Shown here: in pieces, positions 750 to 60,274 of the stretch | Layout of the letters: the number at the start of each line of letters is the position of its first letter | How positions within the stretch are numbered: position 1 is the first letter of the stretch | Source of the DNA: Eledone cirrhosa | Taxonomy: Eukaryota | DNA: 64,000 nucleotides | Direction of reading: 5' to 3' | NCBI GenBank assembly: GCA_964016885.1 | Contig: OZ024747.1 | Coordinates: 61,256,001 to 61,320,000 of the forward strand | Position numbers and translations under genes: made by a program | The notes under the pieces: model-generated | Told to the model about the DNA's origin: nothing | Seen by the model: only the letters and a program-made list of their open reading frames with translations | Database searches by the model: none

Positions 750-824
750 GCTGTGATACATATTTCAATGACGACAGTGGCCACACGATTCCATGCAACC
801 AGTGCCATGATCTCATCAGACAGC
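750..824 (-). ncRNA. Type I hammerhead ribozyme, long stem II, minimal helix III
   Basis: Minus strand reads GCTGT-CTGATGA-[~21-bp G:U-rich stem II, GAAT loop]-GAAA-T-ATGT-A-TC|ACAGC; helix I GCTGT/ACAGC is perfect; cleavage triplet AUC. Confidence 0.82.
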
Positions 825-926
825 TTCATTACATAATAAGGTTACATTCTCAAGGCAATCCGAACTAAAACAAGAAGGGAACAGACAAAGATGATGTTCT
901 TGAAGCCTTCACCAATATATATCCTC

Positions 927-1422
927 ATCATCATCATCATCATTTTATGTCCGCTCTTCCCTGCTTGCAAAGGTGGGACGGGTCTTATTCAGCACAGCAT
1001 CTCTCCACTTGTCACGGTCCTTCATCATCTCCACCGTGAGCTTCAGTGATCTGAGGTCTGTTCTCACCACCTCTGCCCATATTTTTTGTGGTCTACCTCT
1101 ACCACGTCTTCCTTCAACTGGCATTTCCTGGCACTTCTTCACCCATCGGTCATCCTCCATGCGTATCACATGTCCATACCACCTCAGTCTCCTCTCTCGC
1201 ACACTACGTTCTATCCCTCTCAGACACATTCATGCTGGGTCGTTCATTGCACATCCAACGGAGCATGCTTGCCTCATTTCGCTCCAACCGTCGCATATCC
1301 TCTGCAGTTGCTGCCCATGTCTCACTACCATGCAACATCGCGCTCCTCACACAGGCATCATATAACCGGCCTTTCGTACACAGGGAGAAACCCTTCTTCA
1401 TCAGCAGAGGAAGCAGCTCCCT
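927..1422 (-). mobile_element. RTE-clade LINE, 5'-truncated 3' end
   Basis: ORF pieces KGRLYDACVRSAMLHGSETW...RRLRWYGHVIRM...RGRGRP..W...DRDKWR are typical of the RTE C-terminus; ends in an (ATG)n tail. Confidence 0.93.
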
Positions 1423-1494
1423 AATATATACACATATATATATATATATATATATATACATATCCATATACATACATATATATATGAAAGATCC

Positions 1495-1650
1495 AGCTGA
1501 ACTGTTGCCATTTCAACAGCTAGTTTCAAACTAGCTGTTGAAATGGCAATAGTTTAGTTATCATGGTCCTGACTCTTTCATATTACCACACTCTACTACC
1601 TCAAGTATCAAGTACTCTTGTGAGTAATGGTCTAACAGGTTTTTACTGCA
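1495..1650 (+). mobile_element. PLE-like pseudo-LTR fragment with terminal palindrome (1495-1559) holding the 3' half of an HHR
   Basis: Inverted repeat centred on C1527; GAAA-TGGC...GTTA-TC half core; related to 41020-41140 in the opposite orientation. Confidence 0.6.
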
Positions 1651-1934
1651 TCCATTTTAATTTATATATATGTGTGTGGCAGAAACTCAAGTTCGGGTAT
1701 AAATTGAAGGTACCCATTTACGTGTGTTGTGTTAAAACAAATAACTATGTGTATACTTTGGGAGTTTACTTATCATTACCTATGGTGTACACTGAGATAC
1801 AACCGGTACTAGTAGTGAAACCCATGCTAGTCCCATCAACTTATTCTTATATATATATGTATGTAATACAGACGACCCAACTTCCCACAGGTACAAGCCG
1901 AATCTGAAGCATATAGACAATATGCCCCCATCCC

Positions 1935-2190
1935 CTTCCACTGCAAAGTGGTCGTGGAGATGCCACACTGTAAAGTGGTCGTGGAGACTCTACAGAAAAA
2001 AATCACCCAGCATTCACTGTAAAGGAGGTTGGTGTTAGGAAGGGCATCCAGCTGTAGAAATCAAGTCAAAATCAGTTCCCGTATGAGCAAGACATAGTCA
2101 GCCGACCTGGCACTGTTCACAACAGAACAACCCGTCTAACTCATGCTGGTGTGGAAGATTGGACAGAAAATGGTAATGATGATGATGATG
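1935..2190 (+). mobile_element. Non-autonomous RTE-tailed element (GGTGTTAGGAAGGGCATCCAGC module)
   Basis: Module recurs at ~13100, 18070, 20500, 25520, 26020, 32090, 41400, 60400; RTE-like 3' end with (GAT)n tail. Confidence 0.75.
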
Positions 2191-2236
2191 ATATATATAT
2201 ATATATATATATATATATATATATATATATATATAT

Positions 2237-2720
2237 AGTGACAAAACATAAGTCAATTGCATGAACTCATAATCCTTTATTTACTGCTATATATATTTCG
2301 ATGATAGCCATTGAATGGCTATGACCTCATCAGGCAGTTAGTCAGTTCTTAGATATGCCAGCTCTGTGTTTATAGTGTTGATGGTATCAGAGCCTTGGGA
2401 CATACGAGCTTGTTAGGAATAATTTAATGTTGTCAGCAGGAATAGTCTTAATTCTCATTGGTCAGTTTGTAGAAGCTAGTAGGGTTGGTATTTGACCTCA
2501 AAGAGGCAGGTGGTGTTGTAAAGTTCAAACCATCAGACAAGATGACAATAGTTCCATATGACTGATTTTCACAAAAAGCATTCCTGGTCAGATATATATT
2601 CAATTGAGGTTTATAGTATGAAATTCAATACTACAGGGTATACTTAAATTGAGGAATTTCGTTTGTCCGTTGGTAATTTTGCCCGTTTTCTTGGACATTA
2701 TTTCAATGTTTGCTGCTGGC
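2237..2720 (-). mobile_element. Penelope-like element 3' remnant
   Basis: Broken frames give NIEIMSK...ISYYKPQLN, resembling a PLE GIY-YIG C-terminus, ~260 nt upstream of the HHR on the same strand; (TA)n on both sides. Confidence 0.55.
2283..2338 (-). ncRNA. Type I hammerhead ribozyme
   Basis: Minus strand: ACTGC-CTGATGA-GGTCATAGCCATTCAATGGCTATCATC-GAAA-T-ATAT-A-TA|GCAGT; helix I ACTGC/GCAGT; palindromic ATAT loop in helix III; AUA site. Confidence 0.85.
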
Positions 2721-57556: not shown

Positions 57557-58193
57557 ATAATAATATATATACTGACTGATTAGATTGAAAGACACAGACA
57601 GACAGACCATGAGAAGAAGAACTGGACAACTAGATGGACAGAATATATGAGAAAAAGAGAGGGAGAGATTGACAGATATATAAAGAAAGGGATAGATAGA
57701 TTTGAGAGAGGGGGGGGGGCAGAGAGAGATAGGGACAGAAAGAGAGAGAGGAAGGAAGAAATAAAGGAATGGGGAAACCAAATAAGGGAAGAAATGGATA
57801 GAGAGAGAGAGAATGAGGGAAGGATCTACAGACTGATGGTCAGTTAGAATTTACCAAAATATTGATTTCCAGTTACTTTGGTTTTACGAGGATATTGTTG
57901 TCTATATACAGGAAGGTAAAACCCCATTCTTACCAAATACAAGTCAACACCACTAAGCATTATGGTTGGGATTTTACCTTCCTTTTCACCTACTCTGCTT
58001 CTTCCCATGCTTAGAGTACTACCCTGATTTGTGGTCTTTCTAGTCTTGGCACCAGACTTTACATATGTCTCTCTCTCACTCCCTCTCTGTTTCTCTCTCT
58101 CACTCCCTCTCTGTTTCTCCCTCTTCTTCTCACTCTCACTATCGAGGGTAAACACAGTAAGTAAGGTACTCGATACATTAGTCGAGTATAAAG

Positions 58194-58333
58194 ATCATGT
58201 TTAATATAGAAATGGCTTCTACAGGACTAGAACTGTTTCATTCAAAAGAAATCATCAGGAAAGCTTTCCTGATGATTTCTTTTGAATGAAACAGTTCTAG
58301 TCCTGAAGAAGCCATTTCTATATTAAACATGAT
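58194..58333. repeat. 140-bp palindrome with no loop (family C)
   Basis: Centre AAG|CTT at 58263/58264; one mismatch between arms; homologous to 20870-20980. Confidence 0.96.
58214..58264 (-). ncRNA. Hammerhead ribozyme motif (family C, left arm)
   Basis: GCTTTC-CTGATGA-TTTC(TTTT)GAAT-GAAA-CAG-TTCTAGTC-CTG-TA|GAAGCC; the mirror copy on + has GTA>GAA at the cleavage triplet. Confidence 0.66.
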
Positions 58334-58927
58334 ATATATATATGAGTAAGACAGAGTCACCTGACCCAACTTACCTTAAATGGGACAACCCGTCTAACCC
58401 ATGCTAGCGTGGAAAATGGATGATAAACGCTGATGATGATGATGATATATATTTATTTTTGGGATGAAGCTTATTGAATAGAATGGACACACCTTCAGTC
58501 GTTTCTTTACTCACTCAATTATCTAATTAAGTCCAAATTATTAAAATTCAGACTCAACCAATTAGATTGGACACATGCGTTAATCAGTGAGGAAGACCAC
58601 TTTGTGTGGTTAGGAAAATTAAAATATATATATATATATATGAGAAATCACATGGCTAAGTGGTTAGTGTGTTAAGCTTATGATCATAGAGTCATGAGTT
58701 CGATTCCCAGTGGTGCATTGTGTCCTTGAGCAAGACACTTTATTACATATTGCTCCAGTTCACTCAGTTGGCAAAAGTGAGTTGTACCTGTAAGGATGTC
58801 AGTGGAATGACACTTGTTATCAGAATCAATAATATATTTCCTTCATTGTACTGTGTCATTTGCTTTATTATTTATGTTTACCTTTGGCATATATATATAT
58901 ATATATATATATATATATATATATATA

Positions 58928-59155
58928 TTTCCAAGAGATGTCAGCATGAATGGACCTGTAATTTTTATCTAAAGTCATTTTTTCCAATTTCTCCCTGCCC
59001 GTCCCTTCAATCTATCTTATTTCTCATTTTTTCTTCTGATGAAGGACTAGCATCTGAAACATTAAGATCCTCTTCCTGCTATATCAAGCATTAACCTAAT
59101 ATATTCCTTCCATATACTGTACCGATTGTGTTGTTATTTCTGTTTACCTTCTCCA
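58928..59155 (+). mobile_element. PLE-like pseudo-LTR (family D) with HHR variant at 59032-59067
   Basis: TCTT-CTGATGA-AGGACTAGCATCT-GAAA-CA-TT|AAGA; (TA)n on both sides. Confidence 0.72.
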
Positions 59156-59254
59156 TATATATATATATATATACATACATACACACATATTGACATACTT
59201 ATTCAGATATATGTGTATATGAATGTTTATATAGATTAGACATCTACCCAGTAA

Positions 59255-59497
59255 TGTCTGTTTCTGCTGCACCTGCTCCCTTAAACATTTTGTTTTGCCA
59301 GATTGGTTGATCCGAGCGTAGTGAACCCCAGCTGCTGTGTTTGATGTTGAGGTTTTTGAGGAACAATTTCAAATTGTTTTTGCAGTGTTTTTTCTGTCCA
59401 CTAACTAAGCACTTGCCTTGGCTCAGCTCTCCATACAGTAGCTGTCCAGTGTGTGTGTGTGTGTATGGCTCAGCTCTCCATACAGTAGCTGTCCAGT
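59255..59497 (-). mobile_element. RTE-clade ORF C-terminal remnant
   Basis: QLLYGELSQGKCLVSGQKKHCKNNLKLFLKNLNI....W..L..D...W; the QLLYGELS segment is duplicated around a (CA)n. Confidence 0.75.
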
Positions 59498-59905
59498 ATG
59501 TGTGTGTGTGTGTATATATACAGACTGAACAAAAAAAATGGTGTAGACATACAACACAACAGGAGGAACAATGAATATAACACCACTGACGATGTTGCAG
59601 ATGTGCAACGAAAGGTTTATGTAAATTATGTAAACTATATATATGTGTTTGTGTCTATATTGTATCTGTATTATTTTTGACCGCCGGTCAGTCAATGGCA
59701 ACATTGAGGACCGAGTAAGTTAGATCGCAGATATATATATATAAAAGACAGCGAGAAGCGAAAACCAACCAAACAGTGAGTGTGTTCTGTTATTAATTCT
59801 GGCAATATTACGCAAATATGACCCTCCCCAAATATAACAATATATATATATATATATATATATAAGAGAGTATTGAAGTTTGCTTGAAGCATTGTGGAAT
59901 AATAA

Positions 59906-60274
59906 ATAAATATCTTTAAGTCGTTTGGAAGCCTCGACAATGCAAAGATATTCAAAACAACAAACAGCGGAGGACGCGTTTCGCACCTGTCCGACAGACA
60001 ACCTTTACCCCGGAAAAAAACCCCAGTTGATGGATGTGAATCCGAAATATATAGGGACTATTAAATCTCGCCCAAGGTAACTCCCTCTTGTGTTGTTATT
60101 TTTATTTTATCCTTTATACTCTTCCCTTCTTTCTTCTACACATTTACACATCTTTACACACCACGTATCTCAACGTACACCCACTTACATCTCTCTCTCC
60201 ACCACCGGATCTTGTTACCCGGAGATTTACCCATTTGCATTGTCGAGGCTTCCAAACGACTTAAAGATATTTAT
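59906..60274. mobile_element. Element bounded by perfect 41-bp inverted repeats, with HHR-like relics inside
   Basis: ATAAATATCTTTAAGTCGTTTGGAAGCCTCGACAATGCAAA at 59906-59946 and its exact reverse complement at 60234-60274. Confidence 0.7.

Follow-up and report, generated by a model that had tools for sequence, protein, structure and literature searches.

Hammerhead motifs at the 3′ ends of Penelope-like elements in a 64-kb window of the Eledone cirrhosa genome

The stretch analysed here (the window) comprises 64,000 nt of contig OZ024747.1 of Eledone cirrhosa (forward strand, positions 61,256,001–61,320,000), a species whose 3.0-Gb genome, in ∼28 large contigs, is dense in TA microsatellites. 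An initial annotation had placed hammerhead ribozymes there and linked them to Penelope-like elements (PLEs), and all the cores it named were found. To define complete motifs, a strict type I descriptor was used, combining a helix I of 5–8 bp, a stem II, a self-complementary helix III of 8 nt and the UH cleavage motif. It returned five motifs, at 750–824(–), 2283–2338(–), 3965–4030(–), 4156–4221(+) and 7202–7272(–), with predicted cut sites after positions 755, 2288, 3973, 4213 and 7210, respectively. The reversed window yielded none, and dinucleotide-shuffled windows a mean of 0–0.08 with a maximum of one (100 shuffles under each of six settings). A relaxed descriptor, in which the foot of stem II may also carry a mismatch or an additional base, gained 58214–58264(–), while 20931(–) entered only when a helix I of 3 bp was allowed; the window total thus became six or seven, against a mean of 0.04–0.18 in 50 shuffled windows, and the value of 6 per 64 kb corresponds to 94 per Mb. 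Were these chance matches in low-complexity DNA, one would point to the 7-nt core, which by itself is only mildly enriched (32 in the window, 21–26 in shuffles), and to a core at 1342–1424 that was rejected as a hammerhead since it sits in coding DNA of a long interspersed nuclear element (LINE). The full-descriptor counts, the genome-wide pattern counts and the covariation described below refute this explanation for the families listed here, leaving it a negligible probability.

These motifs fall into eight families, designated H1, H2, H3, H5, H6, H7, D4 and D5. The H1 copy (622–905, minus strand) is a 5′-truncated end that adjoins a TA-rich array at 1–621 and contains the hammerhead at 750–824; its ends were set by eye from the sequence and from family copies. 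H2 (2238–2659, minus strand), assigned as the 3′ terminus of a young PLE of the Hydra clade, adjoins a (TA)n tract at 2191–2237. The hammerheads at 3965 and 4156 lie in the left (3835–4091, minus strand) and right (4095–4265, plus strand) arms of one inverted insertion, H3, whose sequence also points to a Hydra-clade PLE end, as does that of H5 (7172–7345, minus strand), in which the helix III palindrome contains G+C. H6 is present as a copy at 20845–21093 (minus strand; hammerhead 20931–20979), with helix I cut down to 3 bp and a U.U base of stem II, and as a second inverted insertion, whose left arm (58141–58264, minus strand) carries the near-consensus hammerhead 58214–58264 and whose right arm (58263–58340, plus strand) bears one lacking U16.1. 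Both H7 copies lie on the plus strand and are damaged: that at 40046–40304, with a minimal hammerhead at 40185–40220, in helix I and stem II, and that at 58928–59155 in its hammerhead at 59032. D4 is represented on the plus strand by an internally deleted copy (43647–44720), in which an N-terminal piece of the open reading frame (to 44241) is followed by a pseudo-long terminal repeat (pseudo-LTR) with a hammerhead at 44472–44515 that has a 2-bp helix I, and by a pseudo-LTR at 59513–59839, the hammerhead of which (at 59581) is identical to that of a full-length copy in locus L171. D5 is a plus-strand pseudo-LTR (59946–60266; inverted tail 59866–59946) of a young PLE encoding a reverse transcriptase (RT) and a GIY-YIG endonuclease, with a hammerhead-like motif at 60021–60056 whose core reads CAGUUGA; an antisense half-core directly upstream of it was rejected by eye, there being no helix I to match. 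A ninth family, of the Hydra clade and with the core change U4A, has left an inverted stub with the hammerhead 3′ half only (3017–3175, plus strand), and an inverted pair of decayed 3′ halves of the long-stem-II type described below, lacking the first core strand, lies at 19990–20180.

The type I core (CUGANGA, GAAA and UH in a three-helix junction) is present in H1, H2, H3, H5 and H6; H7 and D4 have it in the norm of the family, and D5 departs from the consensus core. The catalytic positions G8 and G12 and the UH motif are retained in every family. Eight copies had been described as intact: five satisfy the strict descriptor and 58214 the relaxed one, but 40185 is damaged and 20931 has a shortened helix I. 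Similarly, among the copies held to be degenerate, 58263 and 59032 are so, while 44472, 59581 and 60021 match the norm of their families. An Rfam scan of the window gave no hammerhead at the gathering score and none among the 150 of 246 E-value matches listed, returning only the tRNA-like head of a short interspersed nuclear element (SINE) and microsatellite noise. The motifs are therefore unannotated as far as Rfam is concerned, but PLE hammerheads, one of them in an Octopus Hydra element, have been published (PMC4209133, PMC8557442; comparisons with the literature here and below relate to the portions of each source compared). Folding z-scores for the single strand were weak (–2.8 to +0.8), as expected since the motifs are small and helix III needs a partner.

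The families had been thought unrelated. However, H1, H2, H3 and H5 share one conserved design, in which the foot of stem II consists of three variable base pairs followed by an unpaired C that faces C, U or A, above which rises a long upper stem; helix III is of 8 nt and self-complementary. The unpaired C was present in 190 of 194 motifs of the fetched loci (a redundant set), and of 113,850 matches in the genome 107,665 had it; its neighbours covary. In an alignment of ten hand-picked motifs of this design from related families, two-sided changes were seen in 14 of 18 pairs and 98.3% of the cells were paired, compared with 31–49% in slid registers. Covarying helices were also recognized by eye between D4 and a sister family. 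Inspected by eye, the Hydra hammerheads of Craig et al. 2021 (PMC8557442, File S2) included no long stem II with an unpaired C, and a helix II bulge has been described for the Drosophila virilis variant (PMC4209133).

Six of the eight window families are the 3′ pseudo-LTR ends of PLEs with coding copies elsewhere in the genome, which bears out the earlier attribution of these motifs to a large radiation of PLEs with type I hammerheads. Hammerheads were located 0.2–1.7 kb behind RT/GIY-YIG frames. The check for linkage to such frames gave same-strand links for H2 (locus L177, with an endonuclease tail in L019 and L023), H3 (6 of 15 loci), H5 (2 of 20; L174 and L175), D4 (8 of 20) and D5 (at least 9 of 20), and for H7 a link without RT (1 of 20). 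The upstream frame of the endonuclease-containing (EN+) type, i.e. RT plus C-terminal GIY-YIG, was full in D4 and D5 and represented by same-strand pieces in H2, H3 and H5. H2 copies are 97–99% identical, as in a young family. H2, H3 and H5 lead into Hydra-type proteins carrying the DKT, CxCX5C linker, CxxC and CxH motifs by which the Hydra clade is defined (Craig et al. 2021, PMC8557442), and TA flanks or a (TA)n insertion site, as in that clade, were found at the Hydra-type copies. On these motifs, H2 (2283), H3 (3965/4156) and H5 (7202) are assigned to the Hydra clade, and the families at 40185, 44472/59581 and 60021 to other clades. In the reverse test, 21 of 30 Hydra-endonuclease loci had a hammerhead within 1.5 kb downstream; Pfam returned no family for four of the Hydra proteins. 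H6 (20931/58214) is likely to be of Hydra type as well, since an inverted Hydra RT piece adjoins it in L309 and its design matches hammerheads of several listed Hydra families (PMC8557442), which also have the U.U base of stem II and an ACAG/CUGU helix III; its coding neighbours are inverted Hydra pieces only (2 of 25 loci).

The H7 link is provided by L179, an RT-deleted element between two hammerheads that retains the endonuclease, which we take to be Neptune-like, and the N-terminus; the family norm is intact. For D4, L171 holds an open frame of 1000 amino acids with RT, GIY-YIG and a CX4CxxC linker (Neptune/Nematis type). This frame, which has a long asparagine-rich N-terminal stretch, lies inside a large inverted duplication. 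The deleted D4 copy in the window is 94% identical to this parent over 102 amino acids, and this piece (43969–44241) is the only PLE coding DNA detected in the window with seven query proteins; the statement that PLE coding sequence is almost absent therefore holds.

H1 differs in having a non-coding unit of 1.25–1.6 kb between same-strand hammerheads, in which the longest open frame is of 96 codons. Head-to-tail units were seen in L334 (1,599 bp, including a 190-bp insertion) and L353 (∼1.25 kb), and the copies are 75–90% identical to one another. In the H1 copy of L280/L337, the hammerhead 5′ half bears four 43-bp tandem duplications. H1 is most plausibly a non-autonomous derivative of PLEs, bigger than the described retrozymes and, with no coding frame of its own, likely to borrow Hydra-type enzymes. 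It had been suggested that some of these sequences are small retrozyme-like RNAs, and most families might indeed be small retrozymes independent of autonomous elements and replicating as short circular RNAs: retrozymes are reported to derive from PLEs and to be non-autonomous, the non-coding units of H1 are arranged head-to-tail and bounded by hammerheads on both sides, and H7 has its RT-deleted copy between two hammerheads. However, retrozyme units measure 150–450 bp, and none of 170 loci had same-strand copies within 900 nt (the motif was recognized in 162), so no small tandem arrays were found; moreover, six families run on into PLE coding frames. This explanation, which would apply at most to H1 with its large unit, and perhaps to H6, is thus very unlikely for most families. 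In comparison with the metazoan non-LTR retrozymes (PMC7229834; Li, Clavereau and Pollet 2026, bioRxiv 10.64898/2026.07.22.740005), H1 is alike in being non-coding and head-to-tail with one hammerhead per unit, and fits the PLE origin proposed for them there, but it differs in unit size, consists mostly of truncated single ends, and is known here from DNA alone.

The D5 motif at 60021 had been counted as decayed. In fact, the core CAGUUGA (U4A, A6U), with its helices intact, was found in 2,214 exact genome copies and the consensus core in none, so that 60021 is the fixed form of the family. Contigs from four sequencing runs were compared over D5, and in the two covering the core no change at a core position was listed. 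Locus L214 contains a D5 frame of 923 amino acids with RVT_1 and a weak GIY-YIG match, and L172 a tandem-plus-inverted arrangement; the one named close match of the protein belongs to Octopus bimaculoides, with an identity of 55% across half the query. A metagenome scan with the single D5 protein revealed no relatives, but one with an alignment revealed 77 loci, of which the 39 with a match reaching near the frame end were examined. A hammerhead motif was present in 14 of the 39, at the same place as in D5, with seven consensus cores, five with A3-U8, one U4C, one G8A and none with U4A/A6U; the A3-U8 pair replaces C3-G8 in L409, L410, L415, L427 and L428, which have differing helices. Given that the motifs of its protein relatives occupy this site, the D5 motif probably descends from a genuine hammerhead, within a lineage in which changes to the core are tolerated. 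A second variant family, the young Hydra-linked one of the stub at 3017–3175, has U4A alone: a 30-nt pattern gave 19,399 exact matches, A occupied the core position in all 100 matches listed, and copies in L385, L399 and L401 were 97–98% identical through the endonuclease frame. A candidate sister family with CAGUUGA (2,002 matches) was rejected, as 28 of 30 fetched loci share one flank inside a LINE coding frame, presumably Dong/R4-like. Other variant cores in spaced genome samples (loci L230, L225 and L271) included G5U/A6G in an inverted pair (L230, two copies) and the known U3-A8 swap.

A literature search gave no paper on hammerhead variants with U4A plus A6U cores, the study of small dimeric PLE variants being outside the comparison; that study (Lunse, Weinberg and Breaker 2017), which by its title is said to deal with such variants, may already list U4A, A6U or A3-U8 cores. 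In the natural variants named by Perreault et al. 2011, which include U4C, A6C, U3-A8 and a U.U stem-II base, activity is reduced or retained; U4A and A6U are not among them.

These variants bear on a further explanation, compatible with the main reading given below, by which the fold would be retained since a PLE protein or a host factor binds or recognizes it, cleavage being weak or lost in some families. It would account for the fixation of U4A/A6U in D5 and for the U4A core of the Hydra-linked family, for the retention of the unpaired C amid covarying neighbours, and for the low in vitro activity reported for PLE hammerheads; against it, no family has lost G8, G12 or UH, and in 5 of 14 motifs of the D5 relatives both partners of C3-G8 have changed together to A3-U8, as in a core that works. 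On balance it appears rather unlikely.

To estimate the genome-wide scale, the relaxed descriptor was applied to 59 evenly spaced 10-kb pieces (589.8 kb). They contained 60 motifs, compared with 0, 0, 0, 1 and 0 in five shuffles; this is a density of 102 per Mb (bootstrap 66–141), which extrapolates to ∼305,000 motifs (198,000–421,000). The window, with 94 per Mb, is therefore average for its genome. Pattern counts agree in scale with this estimate: the long-stem-II design gave 107,665 matches, its pattern in reverse 76, and the H6 design 26,985, besides the U4A and D5 counts above. Each of the eight window families gave hundreds to thousands of first-look genome candidates, and a Hydra endonuclease query 62,443. 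PLE coding remnants were present in 15 of the 59 samples, occupying 1.9% of bases (seven query proteins). The highest counts given by Cervera and De la Peña 2014 (PMC4209133) are about 4,000 and 9,000 hammerheads per genome with another descriptor, the ∼9,000 minimal hammerheads of Xenopus tropicalis coming from a different method (PMC4209133); for axolotl, 14,255 retrozymes have been counted, again by another method.

The copies have a common 3′ end at (TA)n, while their 5′ ends vary. Head-to-head inverted pairs, of which 3965/4156 and 58214/58263 are examples, were found at 29 of 170 loci, and pseudo-LTR tandems in L172, L175, L179 and L334. In all eight families the strands of helix III form duplexes with themselves, and in seven they give no hairpin as monomers; they pair better between two copies than within one. 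The arrangement is that described for PLE hammerheads, whose in vitro cleavage is low and dimer-dependent (Cervera and De la Peña 2014, PMC4209133), and those with a short stem III cleave as dimers (review PMC6765202). These results are consistent with the idea, to which we give a probability of about 85%, that type I hammerhead folds reside in the 3′ pseudo-LTRs of several PLE families, now present mostly as 5′-truncated ends beside TA microsatellites, and that they are likely to cut the element RNA, probably as pairs. By analogy with what is published on PLEs, read-through transcription of insertions in tandem or inverted arrangement would yield an RNA with two hammerheads, the short palindromic helix III strands of which would pair with one another; cutting at UH would release the element RNA, and the element's endonuclease and RT would then copy it into (TA)n, starting at the 3′ end. 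Target-primed copying that begins there and often halts early would explain why hammerhead-bearing stubs accumulate and far outnumber coding DNA. Lone genomic stubs would be mostly inert.

Several observations weigh against this reading. No coding parent of H1 was found in 15 plus 20 partly overlapping loci, nearby Hydra pieces being separate insertions, and H6 had no same-strand coding link in 45 loci. The links of H7, H2 and H5 to coding frames consist of one or two loci each, and clade names other than Hydra are motif-based, with no tree. The motifs of the covariation alignment were chosen by hand among related families, and the counts from its shuffles should accordingly not be taken as probabilities. 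Finally, D5 is young and abundant although its core deviates at two positions that are normally invariant, and Naiad PLEs lack hammerheads yet spread, so that cleavage may be dispensable.

Elements of this kind are already known, Octopus included; what is new here is the scale, the stem-II C, the U4A-core families and the large non-coding unit. The Hydra-clade PLEs of Craig et al. 2021 (PMC8557442), Hydra-1_Obim of Octopus bimaculoides among them, are alike in the C-terminal GIY-YIG with CxCX5C linker, DKT, (TA)n targeting and a canonical hammerhead near the 3′ end. However, few families outside cnidarians are given there, compared with the 62,443 first-look candidates here, none of the hammerheads in its File S2 shows, by eye, U4A in the core or a helix III palindrome of 8 nt, and 3′ untranslated tails of 1–1.7 kb set the present Hydra-type families apart. 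Like H7 and D5, the minimal PLE hammerheads (PMC4209133) have G10.1-C11.1, a palindromic helix III and an additional nucleotide ahead of stem II, and the Drosophila virilis variant described there shares with D4 a 2-bp helix I and a 6-bp helix II. As in the metazoan PLEs of that paper, single copies and opposite-strand pairs predominate here; U3-A8 is the only core change it names, and its ∼9,000 per genome at most compares with the ∼300,000 estimated here. A literature search combining hammerhead, Penelope and octopus returned Craig et al. only, and one on genome-wide cephalopod ribozymes that paper and one on twister; the main text of the two cephalopod repeat papers compared does not mention ribozymes.

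The rest of the window contains a tandem array of a 43-nt unit at 33185–35900 (63 copies, 96% matches) and tRNA-derived SINE-like repeats, at 2744–2801 and at many sites of 100–200 nt (e.g. 4440–4550 and 7357–7450), several within or next to PLE stubs. Broken minus-strand LINE frames with endonuclease and RT, which we take to be L1/Tx1-like, lie at 42217–43623 and 49888–53200, and RTE-like pieces near 900–1400 and at 46745–47161.

A wider proposal, put forward tentatively and at somewhat less than even odds, is that the hammerhead population of this genome (∼300,000) is the largest so far described, and consists mostly of an undescribed Hydra-clade design with the stem-II C in a functional contact, together with at least two young PLE families transposing with cores that break the uridine turn (U4A; U4A plus A6U), these being either new active variants or proof that cleavage is dispensable. 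The unpaired C, kept in more than 100,000 copies, points to a contact absent from the hammerhead descriptions compared, and Rfam misses all these motifs. According to Craig et al. 2021 (PMC8557442), it is unclear which role hammerheads play for PLEs. In this genome, young families with consensus, U4A and U4A/A6U cores stand side by side with open full-length frames (L171, L214), and the relation between cleavage rate and spread is therefore directly testable. With about one motif per 10 kb, cleavage in introns, if real, would matter for host transcripts.

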